Translations under genes and position numbers: made by a program
Assembly: GCA_043719295.1 (NCBI GenBank)
Contig: JAYSUD010000008.1
Span: forward strand, 8,216 to 72,215
Source: a bacterium
Lineage (GTDB): Bacteria; Patescibacteriota; Minisyncoccia; Phycocordibacterales; UBA918
Direction of reading: 5' to 3'
DNA: 64,000 nucleotides
Part shown: positions 3,569-63,878 of the stretch, in pieces
Layout of the letters: the number at the start of each line of letters is the position of its first letter
How positions within the stretch are numbered: the stretch's first letter is position 1
The notes under the pieces: generated by a model
The model's input: the letters and a program-made list of their open reading frames with translations, nothing else
What the model was told of the DNA's origin: nothing
Databases searched by the model: none

Positions 3569-3600
3569 TGAGCAAACGAGTGAGAAAGTCTAGTAGACTT

Positions 3601-3655
3601 TTGCAAGAGGTTGACTACTATTTTGAAGTATGAAAAATACTGACAACCTGAACAG
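3601..3655 (+). repeat. ~50-nt nested-hairpin module (TTGCAAGAGGTTG-[inner hairpin]-CAACCTGAACAG). Related copies at 26608-26656 and, inverted, 28254-28302.
   Basis: The outer stem AGGTTG/CAACCT and the flanks GCAAG...GAACAG are conserved. The inner hairpin differs between copies. Confidence 0.6.
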
Positions 3656-4089
3656 CTTCTGTAAGAAGTAAGCGACTTTTGCATTTAGCAGAAGCAGGAC
3701 GCTAAGCGTATAAGCTTCCTTGGAGGTCGCTTATACGAAGCGTCTACATAAGATACATATAGTCTCACTGTCGTGATACTTATGTATCTAAACTGCTGGA
3801 CGTCTCTTATATTAGGAGATTATGACTCATACGCATAAATATAAAAAGTAGTTTTTCCATAAAATTAGGTTATAGTACAACTATATCTATAGGACAAAGC
3901 TTGCACGAAAAAATCATAATGTCCTCAGGCTATTGCAGAAGAAGTGAGCTAAAATTAAAAAAACACATAAAACTGCCTTAAGAGGCGGTTTTAGTGCGAC
4001 AGAGCATCATCTGACATATACACAAGCAAAACGTTTAAAGCTGTAGGGTTGAAAATCATATTCCAACTGAGGTAATACGCTACGTTTTC

Positions 4090-11788: not shown

Positions 11789-12116
11789 TCCGGTGTAGCT
11801 CAGCGGTAGAGCAATCGACTGTAACATTGAACAATGTTCAAAATAGCAGCCTTATCGAGAAATTGATATTGCAAACAAGGTGAATTGCTGGAACCCCCAC
11901 GACACAAGTCAGGGCAATCAGCAGCCAAGCTTTTGGAGAAATCCAATTGAAGGTCCAGAGACTATCCCTTCGGGGAGTAGAATGCTCACAAATGCATTCG
12001 AAGCGCCTTGCACCGTCAGTGTAGTAATACAACCGGTGATGATATAGTCCACGCCATACAGTAACGTATGAATAAGTGTAATCGATTGGTCGCAGGTTCG
12101 AATCCTGCCGCCGGAG
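11789..12116 (+). tRNA. tRNA-Asn (anticodon GUU) interrupted by a group I intron in the anticodon loop. No CCA is encoded.
   Basis: Exons tccggtgtagctcagcggtagagcaatcgactgt + taatcgattggtcgcaggttcgaatcctgccgccggag fold into a 72-nt cloverleaf. Acceptor TCCGGTG/CGCCGGA, U8, T-loop TTCGAAT, G73, and a 5-nt variable loop that excludes Tyr. Confidence 0.75.
11823..12078 (+). ncRNA. Group I self-splicing intron (~256 nt) within tRNA-Asn.
   Basis: CCAAGCTTTTGG (P5-like), GTCCAGAGACTA (J6/7-P7) and ATATAGTCC (P7'/J8-7) match the group I consensus. The intron ends in G. Boundaries are good to about 2 nt. Confidence 0.7.
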
Positions 12117-12132
12117 CTTTAGAATTTAGAGA

Positions 12133-12153
12133 CCACCCGCAAGGGTGGTTTTT
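12133..12153 (+). terminator. Rho-independent terminator downstream of tRNA-Asn.
   Basis: ccacccgcaagggtgg followed by ttttt. Confidence 0.7.
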
Positions 12154-12162
12154 AAAATTCTT

Positions 12163-12184
12163 AGCTCCGGCGGCAGGATTCGAA
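12163..12184 (+). repeat. Perfect inverted copy (22 nt) of the tRNA-Asn 3' end.
   Basis: agctccggcggcaggattcgaa is the exact reverse complement of the tRNA 3' end ttcgaatcctgccgccggagct. Together with the tRNA it makes a ~35-bp inverted repeat enclosing the terminator. Confidence 0.85.
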
Positions 12185-12238
12185 GACCTTGCCTGATATC
12201 TTTTTGAGGTACGAAATAAAATAGTGACAAGGTGTACT

Positions 12239-12268
12239 GGTCGTGTAACGACCGAAATTCCTGCCGCC
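12239..12268 (+). repeat. tRNA-flanking module: hairpin with TGTAA loop, then GAAATTCC, then a direct copy of the tRNA 3' strand.
   Basis: ggtcgtgtaacgacc-gaaattcc-tgccgcc. The tail is complementary to 12170-12182. Homologous modules at 58386-58413, 62436-62462 and 63420-63456. Confidence 0.6.
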
Positions 12269-12282
12269 TAAACATCCATATT

Positions 12283-12306: not shown

Positions 12307-12636
12307 CACATGACCCGTAAAGAAACACGCACCTACGCCGATCGAGCTGAGTATATGAAACTCGCTGTCATTAAACGTCGCAAAAAAGTGCGTGACATGG
12401 CACTTGAATACAAAGGTGGAGTCTGCCAAATCTGTAGATATAGTAAAAGTAAACGGGCACTCTCCTTTCATCACATCAATCCCAAAACAAAAGAATTTGG
12501 TATTTCATACAGAGGCTTTACTCGATCATGGGACAAGACAAAAGCAGAACTCGATAAATGCATTCTGCTTTGCATGAACTGTCATATGGAGATACACGAT
12601 GGAATTACAAAGTTACCAGAACTTTGCATTACCTGA
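12307..12636 (+). CDS. HNH endonuclease (zinc-finger HNH); likely a homing-type endonuclease tied to the adjacent intron-containing tRNA.
   Basis: MTRKETRTYADRAEY...CQICRY...SFHHINPK...CMNCHMEIHDG: HNH motif with CxxC pairs. Start taken at the internal Met after the promoter-like box. Confidence 0.7.
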   Translation, partial: HMTRKETRTYADRAEYMKLAVIKRRKKVRDMALEYKGGVCQICRYSKSKRALSFHHINPKTKEFGISYRGFTRSWDKTKAELDKCILLCMNCHMEIHDGITKLPELCIT

Positions 12637-26401: not shown

Positions 26402-26607
26402 GTGTTTTGTATATATAATTGACAATACAAAAAGCATATACCATCGTATACAAAATGTAAAGTTAACTTTACATTTTATCTGTGGAAAAACTTAGGGGTG
26501 ATAAAATCAGAGGATTTATGAAAACGAGTGAGAAGTGATACAAAATCCACCACAAGAGTATTTCCATTTTTATAGTCGTCTTACGACTCCATAAAAATTA
26601 GGTCACT

Positions 26608-26656
26608 TCGCAAGAGGTTTCCTACTCTTTTGGAAAAAGAGTGAGAACCTGTACAG
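26608..26656 (+). repeat. Nested-hairpin module (same family as 3601-3655 and 28254-28302).
   Basis: tcgcaagAGGTTtcctaCTCTTTTggaAAAAGAGtgagAACCTgtacag. Confidence 0.6.
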
Positions 26657-26708
26657 TTCCTGTAAGGAACAAGAGAGATTAAGAAGTGTGCCGTTTCCAT
26701 AAAACCTG

Positions 26709-27705: not shown

Positions 27706-28191
27706 CTATAAATAACTATCAAAATAGATTGCATGGCAAGTATAGCCACCCACATTCTTCTGCAAATAGTCCTGATGGTAACTTTCAGCAGGCCAAAAAC
27801 GTGTATACGGTTCAAGTGATGTAACAACAGGATTGTCCCAACGTTCACTCTCATTCACTACCTCAATCATCTCCTCTCCAATTTCTTTTTCTTTCTCATC
27901 TTTGTAGAAAATTGCAGAACGATACGAAGTGCCTTTGTCATTTCCCTGTTGATTTAAGGTTGTCGGGTTATGAACCTGGAAAAAGAAATCAAGAATTTGT
28001 TTGTATGAAATTACATTCTCATCATAGGTAACAAGAAGTGCTTCGGCGTGACCTTCATGTGATTCATACGTTGGATTTTCACCTTTGCCACCACTGTATC
28101 CAGCTTCAGTATCAAGAACACCTTTAAGATCACGAAAGAGTTCTTCCAATCCCCAGAAACACCCGCCAGCTATGATTGCTTCTTTTTGCAT
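27706..28191 (-). CDS. msrA: Peptide methionine sulfoxide reductase MsrA.
   Basis: MQKEAIIAGGCFWGLEELF... GCFWG active site. 161 aa. Confidence 0.9.
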   Translation of the reverse strand: MQKEAIIAGGCFWGLEELFRDLKGVLDTEAGYSGGKGENPTYESHEGHAEALLVTYDENVISYKQILDFFFQVHNPTTLNQQGNDKGTSYRSAIFYKDEKEKEIGEEMIEVVNESERWDNPVVTSLEPYTRFWPAESYHQDYLQKNVGGYTCHAIYFDSYL

Positions 28192-28250
28192 AGTTATTAT
28201 TATATTAAGAATTAACTTCTATTCTTTACTATCACCAGATAGCGACTCAG
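28151..28250 (-). repeat. Promoter/5'-CDS unit of msrA (copy 1, functional). Duplicated at 28487-28590 and, diverged, at 28321-28405.
   Basis: ~100 nt (ccccagaaacacccgccagctatgattgcttctttttgcatagttattattatattaagaattaacttctattctttactatca) recur nearly identically 336 nt upstream. Confidence 0.85.
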
Positions 28251-28320
28251 AATCTGTTCAGGTTGTCGCTCTTTTTCCAAAAGAGCAGGCAACCTCTTGC
28301 GAAGTGACATTTAGTCACTT

Positions 28321-28405
28321 CTCACCCCAGAAACATCCCCCTGCAAGTAAGGCTTCTTTTTGCATATAGTCTGATATATAAATTATGTACTTCTATTCTT
28401 ACAGA
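28321..28405 (-). pseudogene. Diverged decoy copy of the msrA start (would encode MQKEALLAGGCFWGEK*).
   Basis: On the minus strand reads ATGCAAAAAGAAGCCTTACTTGCAGGGGGATGTTTCTGGGGTGAGAAGTGA, then a hairpin and the nested-hairpin module. Confidence 0.6.
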
Positions 28406-28486
28406 ATCTGTCCACTCATTGGATTTTTTATTTCACTTCGTTCATAAAAACTCACAATGAGTCTTGCGACAGTCCCCCGGACTGTC

Positions 28487-28590
28487 TCACCCCAGAAACA
28501 CCCGCCAGCTATGATTGCTTCTTTTTGCATAGTTATTATTATATTAAGAATTAACTTCTATTCTTTACTATCAGTAGATAATGACTCAGG
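28487..28590 (-). pseudogene. Near-identical decoy copy of the msrA promoter plus first 14 codons, followed immediately by a hairpin and a U-run terminator.
   Basis: Minus-strand RNA: ...ATGCAAAAAGAAGCAATCATAGCTGGCGGGTGTTTCTGGGGTGAGACAGTCCGGGGGACTGTCGCAAGACTCATTGTGAGTTTTTAT. Confidence 0.7.
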
Positions 28591-28633
28591 ACCTGTCAAT
28601 TTGTCACTATTTTTAAAATAAAGTCACCTGACT

Positions 28634-40620: not shown

Positions 40621-40656
40621 AGAAATTCATTGTAACACCTTTAGCTCAACCGTTTG

Positions 40657-40709
40657 CTGCCAGACTTGGACTCGAACCAAGATAACATCCTCCAGAGGGA
40701 TGTGTCCTA
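40657..40709 (-). pseudogene. Partial copy of tRNA-Gln (anticodon arm through 3' end, lacking acceptor 5' and D arm) ~55 nt downstream of the intact gene.
   Basis: Minus strand: ...gtaggacacatccctctggaggatgttatcttggttcgagtccaagtctggcag matches the intact tRNA from the D-loop end to the 3' end. Confidence 0.65.
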
Positions 40710-40767
40710 CAGTCAAATGAGTGAGCGAAACGAGGAAATGGATATTTCTTATTATTTACGTGCTTTG

Positions 40768-40838
40768 CTGCCAGACTTGGACTCGAACCAAGATGATATC
40801 CTCCAGAGGGATACATCCTACCATTAGATGATCTGGCA
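40768..40838 (-). tRNA. tRNA-Gln (anticodon CUG); no encoded CCA.
   Basis: Minus strand tgccagatcatctaatggtaggatgtatccctctggaggatatcatcttggttcgagtccaagtctggcag. Acceptor TGCCAGA/TCTGGCA, anticodon loop CUCUGGA, T-loop TTCGAGT. Confidence 0.7.
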
Positions 40839-45028: not shown

Positions 45029-45304
45029 TTACTCTTTTTTCTTGCGTGTCGCCTTTCGTGCTTTTGTCCCCATGACAAAACTCAACACTTGTGAGACGAG
45101 ACTTCCTTCGGTTACATACGCACGTAATTGTGATACATCTTCGGCAATCACCTCACTTCCTTCATCTATCCGAGCGACAATGCGTCGAATCGACTTGAGA
45201 ATTTTGATTACCTGATATATCGCAACGCATAGTAACACTGTAAACAGTACTACAGACGCACTTGTTATTGCGAAGAAAATATTTGTTTGTAATATCTCAC
45301 TCAT
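45029..45304 (-). CDS. DUF948-like small membrane-anchored protein.
   Basis: N-terminal TM then a coiled coil. 91 aa. Confidence 0.35.
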   Translation of the reverse strand: MSEILQTNIFFAITSASVVLFTVLLCVAIYQVIKILKSIRRIVARIDEGSEVIAEDVSQLRAYVTEGSLVSQVLSFVMGTKARKATRKKKE

Positions 45305-45470
45305 AAGTACAGTATACCTTACAGGTACTGTCTACTCACTTGTTTTTTATCCACTCCGTTCCCAAAAGACTCAGTGAGTCTTGCGAAATGCTTCAAGCAT
45401 TTCTCACCATGCACCAGTAGCGAACATGTTGCTATGTGTGGATGAATACTCTGAAAGTGATACAGAATAA

Positions 45471-54300: not shown

Positions 54301-54592
54301 TATGCGGAGGTCTATTGTTATTGGAGAGTTCCAGCAGTTTCTGCTGAGCCTAGTGTAGGACACTGCTAACGCTGAGGTCCTACACTTGTCTCTAGGTCAG
54401 CAGCAGAAACTGTAAACAAAGTTCGCCATTGTCGCTTGCGTATATGCGGAGTCATATTGTTGTTGGAGAGTTCCAGCAGTTTTCGCTGAGTAACATTCAA
54501 AGCACAGCTAACGCTGAGGCTTTGAATGTTACTCTGGGTCAGCGCAAAAACTGGGTGAAAAGCGAATACTTGGAGCTTCGCAAGACTCATTG
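54301..54592 (-). repeat. Two tandem copies (C 54301-54440, D 54441-54592) of the hairpin repeat element in inverted orientation; a third partial unit at ~54640-54675.
   Basis: Both units share the tatatgcggag...gagagttccagcag leader and the ctcagcgttagc(a/t)gt loop (rc). Their stems differ but stay complementary (covariation). Confidence 0.7.
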
Positions 54593-54724
54593 AGGTTCTA
54601 TGGAACGAAGTGGAGTAGAATCCAATGAGTGGACAGCTTCTGTAAGAAGAGGAGTTCGCCATTCTCGCTTGCGCTCTGTGGCTCACTCCTTGCTAACAAA
54701 CCGTTACGGCCATACAATGAATTT

Positions 54725-58054: not shown

Positions 58055-58136
58055 GCCTCGGTGGCGGAATTGGTATACGCGCACGACTCAAAATCGTGTG
58101 CCGCAAGGCTTGAGGGTTCGACCCCCTCCCGAGGCA
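58055..58136 (+). tRNA. tRNA-Leu (anticodon CAA), type II with a long variable arm; no CCA.
   Basis: gcctcggtggcggaattggtatacgcgcacgactcaaaatcgtgtgccgcaaggcttgagggttcgaccccctcccgaggca. Acceptor GCCTCGG/CCGAGGC, loop CUCAAAA. Confidence 0.75.
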
Positions 58137-58145
58137 CAATAAAAC

Positions 58146-58167
58146 AGCACCTTTTGGTGCTTTTTTA
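58146..58167 (+). terminator. Rho-independent terminator after tRNA-Leu.
   Basis: agcaccttttggtgcttttttat. Confidence 0.7.
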
Positions 58168-58317
58168 TGTGACGAGGAGAAAGCAAACTTCTTTGCTTTT
58201 GTGAGGGTGTCGAAAGACGGAACGATGCCGAAGGCAAGTGAGCCGGGGTCGCAGAAATTTCTGAAAGAAATTATCTGTGACCGCCCACCGAGGAACAAGT
58301 GACTGAATGTCACTTGT

Positions 58318-58413
58318 GGGAGGGGGTCGAAAAGGTTGCCTGATATTTTGTGACGTAAGGAAACAAAATATCGATAACCTGTACTGAACATGTAATGTTC
58401 GATTCCCCTCGAC
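58318..58413 (+). repeat. tRNA-Leu flanking modules: inverted copy of the tRNA T-loop/acceptor (58318-58331) followed by the TGTAA-hairpin module (58386-58413).
   Basis: gggagggggtcgaa = rc of ttcgaccccctccc. Then gaacatgtaatgttc-gattcc-cctcgac. Confidence 0.55.
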
Positions 58414-61855: not shown

Positions 61856-61987
61856 GGGCCTATAGTTCTATGGAAAGAAATCAAAGATTTCTTCCTTCCA
61901 GCACTCACTCGGAAATGTAAGCGAGCTTCCATTTCTCTCGTGTCGTTTGGAAGGAGAATTTCCGGTTTCCAAAACCGTAGATCGAGG
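61856..61987 (+). pseudogene. Partial tandem copy of tRNA-Trp (5' end through T-stem 5' strand) carrying an ~83-nt structured insertion in the D-loop; lacks T-loop and 3' acceptor.
   Basis: gggcctatagttctatgg + [aaagaaatcaaagatttcttcc...ggaagg] + agaatttccggtttccaaaaccgtagatcgagg. The intact gene follows 18 nt later. Confidence 0.6.
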
Positions 61988-62004
61988 ACTTGTAGAAAAT
62001 ATTG

Positions 62005-62075
62005 GGGCCTATAGTTCAATGGTAGAATTCCGGTTTCCAAAACCGTAGATCGAGGTTCGAATCCTCGTGGGCTCG
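62005..62075 (+). tRNA. tRNA-Trp (anticodon CCA); no CCA.
   Basis: gggcctatagttcaatggtagaattccggtttccaaaaccgtagatcgaggttcgaatcctcgtgggctcg. Acceptor with two G-U pairs, loop UUCCAAA. Confidence 0.7.
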
Positions 62076-62462
62076 CTCGAGTAAAGAAAAAACATAATGC
62101 TGAAGCATTATGTTTTTTCTTTAGAACCTGACCTGCGTCAGGTTCGTGCTCGAGCGAGAGACGGAGACATGTCGCCTGCGACAGTCGAGTCGGGGTCGAG
62201 AGTACTTATGATTTGAGGAGGTACGACGATAATCATTAGTAACTCGTGACCGCAGTGAGCCCACGAGGCATAGCTTTTTGAAAAAATGCGTAGTGCGATT
62301 CGAAGCCCGATTGAGATAATTTTGGAGCGAAGCGAACAAAATTATCCAATTGGGATACTGGTCGTGTAAGCAAAGCTTTCTTTCACTGCATTCCTATTAC
62401 AAATAAAAATGAACTTTTCTTTGAATACTCATTTGTGAAAGTAACGACCGAAATTCCTCGTT
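62076..62462 (+). repeat. Highly structured tRNA-Trp 3' flank: nested stems pairing with the tRNA 3' end, then the TGTAA-hairpin/GAAATTCC module.
   Basis: gctcgctcgag (62071-81) pairs ctcgagcgag (62151-60). gagcccacgagg (62257-68) is the exact complement of the tRNA 3' cctcgtgggctc. Module gtgaaagtaacgaccgaaattcctcg at 62436-62462. Confidence 0.55.
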
Positions 62463-62981: not shown

Positions 62982-62996
62982 TACAACTATGCGTCG
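62982..62996 (+). repeat. 15-nt copy of the tRNA-Tyr 5' end, ~170 nt upstream of the intact gene.
   Basis: gcgtcggtggcagag is identical to the first 15 nt of the tRNA, followed by the hairpin gatgaaaagtgaatagtttcacttttcatc. Confidence 0.55.
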
Positions 62997-63165
62997 GTGG
63001 CAGAGCGGATGAAAAGTGAATAGTTTCACTTTTCATCTGGTCTACGAGCGAATGCGAGTAGATTGGTCGCTGTGAGTAATTGCGAAGCTTTTATGAACAG
63101 ACCAAAGGAGGAAGACGAGTCCAACGCTCAGAAACATAAAAACGTTCTTGAGCAAGCATAACATT

Positions 63166-63248
63166 GCGTCGGTGGCAGAGTGGTCAATTGCAAGAGACTG
63201 TAAATCTCTCGGCTTCGGCCTACGAAGGTTCAAATCCCTCCCGGCGCA
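63166..63248 (+). tRNA. tRNA-Tyr (anticodon GUA), type II with a long variable arm; no CCA.
   Basis: gcgtcggtggcagagtggtcaattgcaagagactgtaaatctctcggcttcggcctacgaaggttcaaatccctcccggcgca. Acceptor GCGTCGG/CCGGCGC, loop CUGUAAA, A73. Confidence 0.75.
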
Positions 63249-63260
63249 CAAAATACCAAA

Positions 63261-63285
63261 ACCCAAAGCGGATGCTTTGGGTTTT
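63261..63285 (+). terminator. Rho-independent terminator after tRNA-Tyr.
   Basis: acccaaagcggatgctttgggttttgtt. Confidence 0.7.
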
Positions 63286-63295
63286 GTTGTATTTT

Positions 63296-63456
63296 GGCGT
63301 CGGGAGGGATTTGCACCACAAGAGTATTTCCATTTTTATATTCCCTTCAGTCATTAAAAATTAAGTCAAGACCTTTTGAGATAGATTTGACTGAAAGGAA
63401 AATATACCCAAAAGGTGTACCGGTCATGTAATGACCAAAATTCCCTCCCGGCGCAC
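63296..63456 (+). repeat. tRNA-Tyr flanking modules: inverted 3'-end copy (63296-63313), a 27-nt block shared with 26546-26572, and the TGTAA-hairpin module ending in a direct copy of the tRNA 3' strand (63420-63456).
   Basis: ggcgtcgggagggatttg is close to rc of caaatccctcccggcgc. caccacaagagtatttccatttttata is repeated at 26546. ccggtcatgtaatgacc-aaaattcc-ctcccggcgcac. Confidence 0.6.
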
Positions 63457-63497
63457 TTTTTAAAAACGAGCGTCTACTTTTGTAGGTGCCGTTTTTA

Positions 63498-63878
63498 TTA
63501 GTGTTTAATTAATTCCCAAGTATTGTATAAAACTGGATATGATCCATCTATAAACCAAGCAAGCAAAACTATACTAACTAAAACTAGCGAAATGCCAAAT
63601 ACCATCTTATCTACTTCTCTAGGTGAATTTTTAAGAGATTTGAAACTTAAAATAAAAGCCAGAAGATAACTCGCGTGGATAATAAATATTCCAAAATTAA
63701 CAGATAACTGCATCCATGCTAAATGGGCAGTAGTTGGAACAGAAAAGAATGTCAGTATTTTTGAAAATACACCATTAAAAGTATCTATTGACGCCAATCC
63801 GGAAATTGTCACTATGATTCCAGCGAAAAACAAAACAAACGATAATTTATATTTTTTCATGCAATAAAATTTTAGCAC
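63498..63878 (-). CDS. Hypothetical membrane protein (4 TM).
   Basis: 126 aa, hydrophobic, no motif. Confidence 0.4.
   Translation of the reverse strand: MLKFYCMKKYKLSFVLFFAGIIVTISGLASIDTFNGVFSKILTFFSVPTTAHLAWMQLSVNFGIFIIHASYLLAFILSFKSLKNSPREVDKMVFGISLVLVSIVLLAWFIDGSYPVLYNTWELIKH

Follow-up and report, generated by a model that had tools for sequence, protein, structure and literature searches.

Structured cassettes at tRNA 3' ends in Patescibacteria: a candidate family of small, protein-less mobile elements

What is the DNA directly behind the tRNA-Asn gene of a patescibacterium of the UBA918 lineage, in which the end of the tRNA is repeated once in inverted and once in direct orientation, the former around a terminator-like hairpin? 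The gene lies in a stretch of 64,000 nucleotides (assembly GCA_043719295.1, contig JAYSUD010000008.1), here called the window. Our answer, to which we would assign a probability of roughly 45%, is that this flank represents one copy of a Patescibacteria-wide family of structured mobile cassettes of about 130-170 nt, which encode no protein and are inserted exactly at tRNA 3' ends. Read on the strand of the tRNA, such a cassette would consist of its own terminator hairpin (L), an arm (a'), a core and a direct repeat of the last 15-22 nt of the tRNA. The arm would be the reverse complement of tRNA nucleotides 54-74, often split by a further hairpin (H1) at the boundary between acceptor and T-stem; the core would be either a three-way junction (type 1: P2, GUACUG and P3 with a UGUAA loop) or an alternative, here called type 2.

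The Patescibacteria, or candidate phyla radiation (CPR), account for a large share of bacterial diversity and possess genomes of about 1 Mb with little spare DNA; to our knowledge, almost nothing is known on their non-coding RNAs or mobile elements. Four arm-bearing cassettes as well as six arm-less relatives are found in the 64-kb window alone. The cassettes are conserved across anciently diverged classes, and more strongly than the neighbouring genes, yet individual tRNA genes gain and lose them. Should they be mobile, they would exemplify homing to tRNA ends without a protein of their own, by means of arms that are taken over from the target. Should they be functional RNAs, they would form a large new family linked one-to-one to individual tRNAs. 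Under either reading, the annotation of tRNAs in metagenome-assembled genomes is affected (pseudo-tRNA fragments, partial duplicates, long palindromes that break assemblies), and the cassettes could serve as a lineage marker for Patescibacteria. A full-text search of the literature, incomplete in its coverage, gave no description of such a cassette, and the family appears to be previously undescribed.

The tRNA-Asn flank and its counterparts behind other tRNA genes

An earlier note on this DNA, made from the letters alone, had rightly identified the gene as tRNA-Asn. Joined together, its two exons (coordinates of all features in Table 1) yield a 73-nt cloverleaf with the anticodon GUU, whereas ARAGORN called no tRNA at the locus, because a group I intron splits the gene. 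The Rfam model RF00028 covers positions 11828-12071 with 80.4 bits (gathering score 50 bits), the exact exon boundaries being our own reading, in which the 5' exon ends with U and the intron with G. The last 21 nt of the tRNA (segment a, TTCGAATCCTGCCGCCGGAGC) comprise the T loop, the T-stem 3' strand and the acceptor 3' strand. As described before, they return as a perfect reverse complement around the terminator, 46 nt apart, within a longer inverted repeat (arms 12097-12138 and 12143-12184, 42 nt, 83% complementary, 4-nt loop), whose apex is the terminator-like hairpin CCACCC-GCAA-GGGTGG, followed by a T run. The downstream direct copy of the T-stem/acceptor strand, which had also been noted, is present but partial: TCCTGCCGCC, at 12103-12112 of the tRNA, is repeated directly after GGTCGTGTAACGACC-GAAAT, and the copy stops after these 10 nt, GGAGC being absent. 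The inverted arm (12169-12178) is able to pair with this direct-copy tail, too. An intron-split tRNA-Asn followed by a module was also seen in five other loci (L006, L020, L025, L032, L070).

Exact matches to TACYGNNCRTGTAA occur four times in the window (at 12235, 58382, 62356 and 63418), each of them 117-279 nt downstream of a plus-strand tRNA gene (Asn, Leu, Trp and Tyr, respectively). With one mismatch allowed, 5 matches are found against 0.92 expected, a number reached in none of 100 shuffles. The motif thus recurs behind tRNA-Tyr, tRNA-Leu and tRNA-Trp, as had been claimed, but the layout is the same only in part: the modules of Leu and Trp carry an additional upstream domain compared to that of Asn, and at tRNA-Trp the P3 hairpin of the type-1 unit is truncated after TGTAA (identically so in locus L111) and the direct copy is missing. 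No module was found behind the minus-strand tRNA-Gln of the window.

For a survey of the family, one-genome-per-species contigs were scanned for an exact 20-nt motif (GTACYGGTCRTGTAAYGACC), which gave 101 loci, some 98 of them labelled as Patescibacteria (Saccharibacteria, Paceibacteria, Kaiserbacteria, Nomurabacteria, Lloydbacteria and others). About three loci carry other labels: two are chance matches in coding DNA (L031, L069), and the third (L032), binned outside the Patescibacteria, contains a CPR-type intron-split tRNA-Asn and probably is a mis-binned contig. Of 102 motif hits, 58 have an upstream tRNA on the same strand whose end lies 91-344 nt (in most cases 110-146 nt) before the hit, and these tRNAs cover some 15 amino-acid specificities. 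Among the remaining hits, several lie behind an intron-split tRNA-Asn, several are cut by the edge of the locus, some follow only a decayed tRNA 3' fragment, and five are situated within a larger nested element. Conversely, the P3 motif is present downstream of 69 of the 118 tRNAs in these motif-selected loci and the window, and absent from 49 (about 40%). The common order is tRNA, L hairpin with complementary flanks, a1' (the complement of the acceptor 3' strand), often H1, a2' with the T-loop complement, P2, GUACUG, P3, a short junction and the direct copy (T-stem 3' strand plus acceptor 3' strand). GTAC(T/C)G precedes P3 in every copy, with the L hairpin at the opposite end, P3 having been the search key. 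The module is tied to tRNA genes in its arm-bearing form, but an arm-less relative of the core also occurs away from them.

The arms follow the adjacent tRNA. A copied segment deviating from its neighbour at other loci had been named beforehand as the observation that would speak against the module; instead, the match holds in 58 other loci. In these, the tail and the last 17 nt of its own tRNA share a longest common block of 10 nt on average (4.55 nt with tRNAs of other types), and 20 of the 58 tails share at least 15 nt; for the inverted arm, the longest common substring is 8 with the own tRNA as compared to 5.0 with others. In 38 parsed single modules, a1' pairs with 6.3 of 7 acceptor nucleotides and a2' with 4.55 of 5 T-stem nucleotides of the adjacent tRNA; a' is preserved against the tRNA to about 91% and the tail to 84%, tail identity averaging 10.1 of 12. 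The arm even mirrors the variants of the T loop exactly (ACTCGAA/TTCGAGT, AATCGAA/TTCGATT, ATTTGAA/TTCAAAT) and therefore is a true reverse complement and not a copy of the tRNA 5' strand; beyond the tRNA, it extends as the complement of the trailer, not of CCA. By contrast, the same core and terminator variants stand beside different tRNAs. A larger structure was observed in L082 (positions 797-2330), where a 1.25-kb island with two small open reading frames (ORFs) lies between tRNA-Ala and a decayed tRNA-Ala 3' fragment with an Ala-specific cassette; either flanking direct copy matches the distant tRNA-Ala less well than the inverted arm of this cassette still does.

The cassette folds as a single strand of tRNA-sense polarity. 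For 19 predicted pairs in 52 cores, 95.2% of the cells are paired, as opposed to 70.3% in column shuffles and 25-49% with slid partners. In P2, all 13 pairs have changes on both sides (198 double-change cells), and the closing pair of P3 covaries as well (A-U in 31, G-C in 21). Read on the tRNA strand, G.U pairs exceed A.C mismatches by 33 to 11 in P2 and by 35 to 8 in the arms, an excess which points to the plus strand, be it as RNA or as single-stranded DNA. The isolated module is predicted to form a closing helix together with P2 and P3, that is, a closed three-way junction of -39.5 kcal/mol. As in tRNA-like structures and minihelices, the two module ends together form an acceptor-stem plus T-stem helix, with H1 at the junction. 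H1 itself was considered as a relic anticodon arm and ruled out, since identical H1 loops (CUGGGAG and others) are shared by modules of many tRNA types.

Insertion, exchange and conservation of the cassettes

Presence and absence were compared at the tRNA-Trp gene. Using the MiaA protein in a metagenome scan, we obtained 43 syntenic loci with tRNA-Leu, miaA and tRNA-Trp in this order, in many of them with tRNA-Tyr further downstream. At these orthologous sites, the flank of tRNA-Trp carries a terminator only, a type-2 unit only, a type-1 unit only, type 1 followed by type 2, or, as in the window, type 2 followed by type 1. In L129, the alignment reveals a clean block of 156 nt, absent from L125, L121, L103 and the window, which consists of a terminator (AAAATACAAAAC...TTTTAA), a' (GAGGCCCACGTGGACTCGAAG), P2, ATACTG-P3, CGAGATT and then a second CCACGTGGGCCCGC. 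The block is bounded by this duplicated tRNA end, and the shared ancestral trailer TCGAGTAAA resumes past the second copy; a direct repeat of the tRNA 3' part delimits the inserted DNA, just as in known integrative elements. A terminator variant (AAAATACCAAAAC...GTTTTGTTGTATTTT) is common to modules at tRNA-Tyr (window, L037), tRNA-Trp (L129, L120), tRNA-Ser-GGA (L023, L036) and tRNA-Ser-GCU (L067), which, together with its being part of the DNA inserted in L129, assigns the terminator to the cassette. Arrays of two or three units, each with a tRNA-end copy of its own, were found in L053, L057, L085, L037 and L101, and the inserted DNA (130-300 nt) contains no ORF. By these alignments, the cassette is a discrete insertion by which the end of the tRNA is duplicated, and the tRNA itself stays intact and terminated. 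Among the explanations offered by the earlier note, that of a recombination footprint or a mobile-element tail is favoured, in a more specific form, by the empty, filled and multiply filled tRNA-Trp sites and the L129 block: the entire two-part layout is an insertion complete in itself rather than the tail of a larger element.

Cores are not inherited together with a tRNA type and are exchangeable between tRNAs: P2 is 98% identical between a Gln-type module of Saccharibacteria (L012) and a Tyr module of Paceibacteria (L035), and mean P2 identity hardly depends on whether copies are compared within (0.68) or between genomes (0.63). Type-2 cores follow the pattern AGACGGAG-hairpin-GAGTCGGGGTCG-long hairpin-GTGACCGC, fill the slot between the inverted and the direct arm, and were found twice in the window (plus strand, Leu and Trp modules) and in about 30 other loci; they yielded no Rfam match. 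They are almost invariant across CPR classes, nearly identical even between Paceibacterota (L009) and the MiaA-syntenic loci. How strongly sequence is retained in place can be seen by comparing L111 and L112, whose coding flanks are 83.5-86.9% identical. Their tRNA-Trp is identical in 72 of 72 positions, the terminator in 45 of 50 (with one compensatory stem change), H1 plus a1' in 38 of 38, the type-2 core in 112 of 113 and the type-1 P2 in 43 of 47; H1, a' and the type-2 core taken together amount to 150 of 151. Such figures indicate that the core is under purifying selection in situ.

The mobile-cassette reading and its rivals

As we picture it, the direct repeat would be the duplicated target, either att-like (attachment site) or a long target-site duplication, and the inverted arm would provide site specificity as a guide or build the terminal hairpin of a single-stranded intermediate. 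In either role, the arm may pair with tRNA-end sequence, be it the tRNA's own end, stacked on L, or the tail, thereby closing the core as a mimic of the acceptor/T-stem. The enzyme of insertion presumably acts in trans; afterwards, quasi-palindrome correction or selection for pairing may keep the arm matched, and the cassette may also encode an RNA that matters in situ. The order observed (target, loop, inverted arm, element, target) is the one that integration of a folded hairpin of the CTX-phage or attC type would leave. In CTX-phage attP(+) and integron attC, two inverted arms on a folded single strand likewise rebuild a duplex chromosomal target; unlike these, the cassettes have no identified recombinase, the "rest of the element" is an RNA-like core of only 80-110 nt, and a single-stranded DNA circle is an analogy only. 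With tRNA-targeting tyrosine-integrase elements (crossover in the T loop), they share the site in a tRNA gene, the regenerated tRNA, the direct repeat from T loop to 3' end and the arrays arising by successive insertion, but the insert is about 150 nt long, lacks an integrase, combines a folded, conserved core with an att block in inverted copy that stacks on a terminator, and is not found on viral contigs. In being small, protein-less, modular, hairpin-rich, multicopy and intergenic, and in being nested in each other's hairpin loops, they resemble repetitive extragenic palindromes (REP, and REPIN mobilised by the transposase RAYT), pneumococcal BOX, Rickettsia palindromic elements and miniature inverted-repeat transposable elements (MITEs); GTAC directly 5' of the cassette hairpin may recall GTAG in REPs. 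Unlike in these, the direct repeats are long (15-130 nt) and the arms are copied from the local target: fixed terminal inverted repeats, a hallmark of MITEs and insertion sequences (IS), are not seen, since the arms differ with each tRNA. Near-identical copies in the same genome, another such hallmark, are likewise wanting (P2 0.68 versus 0.63); the copies within a genome have diverged over a long time, whereas variants are conserved throughout the superphylum, and no Y1 (HUH) transposase was seen in the window or the 8-kb loci.

Several observations weigh against mobility. Neither among the 30 proteins of the window (Pfam) nor near modules did we find a transposase, integrase or reverse transcriptase, so that mobility rests on presence and absence and not on a mechanism. 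Recent intragenomic spread is unsupported, given that P2 copies of the same genome are only about 68% identical and thus old. How the inverted arm is derived anew when a cassette changes its tRNA is left unexplained. Some loci combine a perfect tail with a poor inverted arm (L114, L077, L079) and others the opposite (tRNA-Asn of the window, L061); the arm therefore is neither strictly required nor always made at insertion. The strong conservation in situ agrees at least as well with an RNA of use to the host as with selfish DNA. It should also be noted that all loci were gathered by an exact P3 motif, so that conservation of P3 is given by construction and the sample is biased.

It is from this side that the main rival arises, which we consider doubtful but take more seriously than any other, namely that the modules are host-functional, tRNA-linked non-coding RNAs. 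The closing helix would copy the acceptor/T-stem stack of the neighbour, RNase P, RNase Z, the CCA-adding enzyme or another reader of acceptor arms would act on the module, the core would serve protein binding, decoy or regulation, and presence and absence would reflect duplication and loss instead of transposition. The topology a1'-H1-a2'...a2-a1 indeed corresponds to acceptor 5' strand, stub hairpin and T-stem 5' strand, followed by T-stem 3' and acceptor 3' strand; the predicted closed junction, the very strong covariation with its plus-strand G.U bias, the 150/151 identity next to genes that are about 85% identical, the near-identical cores across CPR classes and the arm-less relatives in 5' regions of genes (for example, a RelA/SpoT-family gene and msrA) all agree with it. 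Two ends forming an acceptor-on-T-stem helix, with the anticodon domain replaced and a foreign domain attached, are also known from the tRNA-like domain of transfer-messenger RNA (tmRNA), from YrlA, viral tRNA-like structures and mascRNA; the cassettes differ from them in having neither T loop nor encoded CCA, in copying one specific neighbour and in leaving the Rfam models of tRNA and tmRNA unmatched. However, the module stands behind a terminator, and we identified no promoter for it. Truncated tails leave many copies with an incomplete closing helix (10 nt at tRNA-Asn of the window; tail identity of 10.1 of 12 on average), and the left arm, a true reverse complement that continues into the trailer, does not reproduce the 5' strand and T loop of the tRNA. 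The modules are patchy at orthologous sites and form arrays, and borrowing the tRNA processing machinery would not require mimicry of a specific neighbour. The two readings are compatible and do not exclude each other. The earlier note had also proposed that an RNA spanning both repeats would sequester the tRNA 3' end. In its elaborated form, a cis-acting fail-safe or regulatory device, a read-through duplex of more than 40 bp between a' and the tRNA 3' half would block maturation and mark the RNA for a double-strand-specific RNase, with the downstream copy as a competitor. The minimum-energy fold predicted for a read-through transcript is such a long tRNA:a' hairpin, in which the cloverleaf is lost (-112.8 kcal/mol), the inverted repeat runs continuously from the tRNA via the trailer to the terminator, and a' is better kept against the tRNA than the tail is. 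As a primary role, sequestration nevertheless is unsupported, because the terminator precedes the antisense arm, the arm can pair with the downstream copy instead, and about 40% of the tRNAs manage without a module; moreover, P2/P3 and type-2 cores, arm-less copies, tandem arrays and insertion polymorphism would be left unexplained, and we hold this device to be improbable.

Still less probable in our view are ordinary integrase scars, in which the direct copy would be an attR/attL remnant of since-deleted prophages or islands and the rest unrelated local sequence. The segment from the T loop to the 3' end is the classic identity block of tRNA-targeting integrases, and the direct repeat spans precisely this part; the island of L082 and a 52-nt partial duplicate of the tRNA-Gln in the window, of the anticodon-loop type, would fit as well. 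Yet between the repeats lies a conserved, covarying structure of 150 nt in about 100 genomes rather than random remnants, the inverted copy is not accounted for, and the motif is absent from viral contigs (0 exact type-1 matches among the 2.9 million of IMG/VR). No integrase or recombinase gene accompanies the modules by ORF clustering or Pfam scans, and the suggestion that they are ordinary att sites of such an enzyme has to be given up. At the lowest end, we place unprogrammed template switching during replication, an inverted triplication (a, a', a) at the terminator and the palindromic TTCGAA of T loops that was elaborated later. The direct-inverted-direct order, with junctions at a hairpin and a palindromic T loop, would by its anatomy be expected from a fold-back or template-switch product, but the same architecture and cores recur at the same junctions in dozens of tRNAs and lineages, the cores are under selection, and a terminator variant travels with the cassette.

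A more far-reaching reading, which we judge to be rather unlikely, though ahead of the fail-safe device, is that the split arm (a1'-H1-a2') of a junction RNA or single-stranded DNA is programmable. It would pair with the ~20 nt at the end of whichever tRNA gene or transcript is chosen and direct insertion at the tRNA 3' boundary, by a trans-acting enzyme or by RNA-catalysed self-insertion, or else exert a tRNA-specific activity in trans, for example as a guide or decoy; a guide-RNA-like system native to the CPR, bacteria mostly without CRISPR, would be the consequence. Some guide-bearing mobile elements do home to tRNA genes, and a target-complementary segment is reminiscent of the bridge RNA of IS110, the homing CRISPR RNA of type V-K CRISPR-associated transposons (CAST) and the exon-binding sites of group II introns, a1'-H1-a2' resembling a guide loop. 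Different from these, the two arm halves have one and the same strand as their partner, no DEDD recombinase, Cas12k/Tns or intron-encoded protein was found, and no intron or omega-RNA model of Rfam matched.

Known families and carriers gave no better assignment. At the gathering threshold, Rfam 15 recognised only the group I intron and four tRNAs in the whole window, and at E<=10 the four modules gave only spurious matches to miRNA hairpins far below threshold. Hammerhead and other small ribozyme cores were dismissed after comparison by eye (CUGAUAU instead of CUGANGA, wrong order of helices). Group II introns of class C, known to insert behind terminators (5' GUGYG, domain V/VI, intron-encoded protein), do not apply either: no Rfam intron match was obtained, and the sequence past the terminator begins with the tRNA complement. 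T-box riboswitches have a specifier codon and a T-box sequence pairing with NCCA and are located upstream of aminoacyl-tRNA-related genes; they again were unmatched in Rfam, and the module lies downstream of the tRNA and is complementary to nucleotides 54-74 and the trailer, not to CCA. A primer-binding site of retroviral type was rejected because a' continues as the complement of the genomic trailer and not of CCA. By our reading, CCA stands in three of some 20 tails at a place where the gene has another sequence; about 1.25 such tails would be expected by chance, so that this is not significant as a sign of an RNA intermediate. As to carriage by phages, 25 IMG/VR matches to a generic pattern turned out to be chance matches in coding DNA. 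A conserved protein partner was not found either, ORF clustering of the 101 loci yielding only housekeeping families with at most 12 loci each.

Arm-less relatives, nested elements and tRNA remnants

Table 1. Features of the window (plus or minus strand; bits are covariance-model scores unless stated otherwise)
Feature	Position	Strand	Evidence or remark
tRNA-Asn(GUU) exon 1	11789..11822	+	Cloverleaf fold of the spliced exons
Group I intron in the tRNA-Asn anticodon loop	11823..12078	+	Rfam RF00028 match; boundaries as read by us
tRNA-Asn exon 2; last 21 nt (12097-12117) = segment a	12079..12117	+	Fold, repeat analysis
L, intrinsic-terminator-like hairpin, flanked by complementary A/T-rich sequence; apex of the long inverted repeat	12118..12163	+	Inverted-repeat analysis
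a', perfect reverse complement of tRNA nt 54-74 (GCTCCGGCGGCAGGATTCGAA)	12164..12184	+	Repeat analysis
P2 helix, ACCTTG...CAAGGT with inner hairpin	12185..12233	+	13 pairs, all with compensatory changes (52 sequences)
Junction GTACT and P3 hairpin GGTCG-TGTAA-CGACC (P3 12239-12253)	12234..12253	+	Motif search; covariation
GAAAT and direct copy TCCTGCCGCC (12259-12268; T-stem 3' strand, first acceptor nt)	12254..12268	+	Repeat analysis
ORF of 108 aa, HNH endonuclease	12310..12636	+	Pfam PF01844
Composite module after tRNA-Leu(CAA) (58055-58137): terminator, a', type-2 core (58215-58285), type-1 unit (58319-58413)	58138..58413	+	84 bits
Composite module after tRNA-Trp (62005-62076): terminator, H1, type-2 core (62159-62253), a' (62254-62268), type-1 unit	62077..62385	+	53 bits
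Module after tRNA-Tyr (63166-63249)	63250..63456	+	59 bits
Tyr module, L1 terminator	63250..63295	+	
Tyr module, a'	63296..63317	+	
Tyr module, optional insert	63318..63370	+	
Tyr module, P2	63371..63416	+	
Tyr module, GTACC and P3	63417..63436	+	
Tyr module, direct copy CCCTCCCGGCGCAC, preceded by AAAATT	63443..63456	+	
Another terminator after the Tyr module	63457..63503	+	
Generic element, 3' intergenic region	3580..3682	+	28.4 bits
Generic element; H1 loop holds the optional insert (26545-26600) common with the Tyr module	26530..26683	+	37.7 bits
Two generic elements, each behind a pseudo-copy of the msrA 5' end	28207..28490	-	43.6 and 17.9 bits
Generic element between dus and a small ORF	45301..45407	-	16 bits
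Generic element directly upstream of a RelA/SpoT-family gene	54553..54663	+	28.2 bits
msrA promoter region and first 14 codons, three times	28170..28625	-	
tRNA-Gln gene	40767..40838	-	
Partial direct duplicate of tRNA-Gln (52 nt)	40655..40706	-	
Pseudo-tRNA-Trp	61856..61990	+	
18-nt copy of the tRNA-Tyr 5' end	62990..63007	+	

Apart from the four tRNA-linked modules, the covariance model detects six further copies in the window, none of them beside a tRNA, with scores of 16-44 bits. These generic elements have the form GTGAGA-H1-CGCAAGA-P2-TGRACAG-P3, and a target in trans for the arm-less form was not found, the window containing no TCTTGCG...TCTCAC site. Several are preceded by a truncated 5' copy of the next gene, and a generic element stands behind the first 17 nt of tRNA-Tyr in L086 and L037; insertion of these elements is therefore accompanied by a direct duplication, in which 15-130 nt of target sequence come to lie on both sides. 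In the case of msrA, the promoter region and the first codons are present three times, and both upstream pseudo-copies break off at TTCTGGGG, directly followed by a generic element.

Units are also nested within hairpin loops of other units. A larger nested element, beginning with GGTGAGAAATGGG, surrounds the motif hit in L045, L049, L073, L078 and L091; it contains a type-1 unit in the H1 loop of a generic unit, more P2/P3-like units and a conserved tail (TTCGCCATT..GCGCTCTGTG). In the window, this tail also stands behind the generic element that precedes the RelA/SpoT-family gene; it is part of the RNA-like element, not of the coding sequence of that gene. A function of the large element as leader of RelA/SpoT-family genes was rejected, as the window copy lies upstream of such a gene but those in L073 and L049 do not.

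The HNH endonuclease ORF begins 42 nt past the Asn module, but does not recur next to the modules of other loci. Various tRNA remnants were noticed in addition. The partial duplicate of tRNA-Gln, reaching from the anticodon arm to the 3' end, lies about 60 nt after the gene, has a compensatory change in the anticodon stem and, with no cassette present at this place, resembles an att scar as known from the anticodon-loop type. Directly upstream of the real tRNA-Trp, a pseudo-tRNA-Trp consists of the 5' part of acceptor and D-arm, a structured D-loop insert of about 83 nt and a segment that extends from the anticodon arm over the 5' strand of the T-stem and breaks off at the T loop. Related remnants occur in L111 and L112, the latter with an additional duplication of about 320 nt and a minus-strand generic element at the junction. 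The copy of the tRNA-Tyr 5' end (GCGTCGGTGGCAGAGCGG), 160 nt upstream of the gene, is followed by hairpins. Finally, an optional insert of about 55 nt (CCACCACAAGAGTATTTCCATTTTTATA...AAAAATTAGGTCA) recurs within different units, twice in the window, once in an H1 loop and once after a', and likewise in L021 and L108, which suggests yet another small inserting module.

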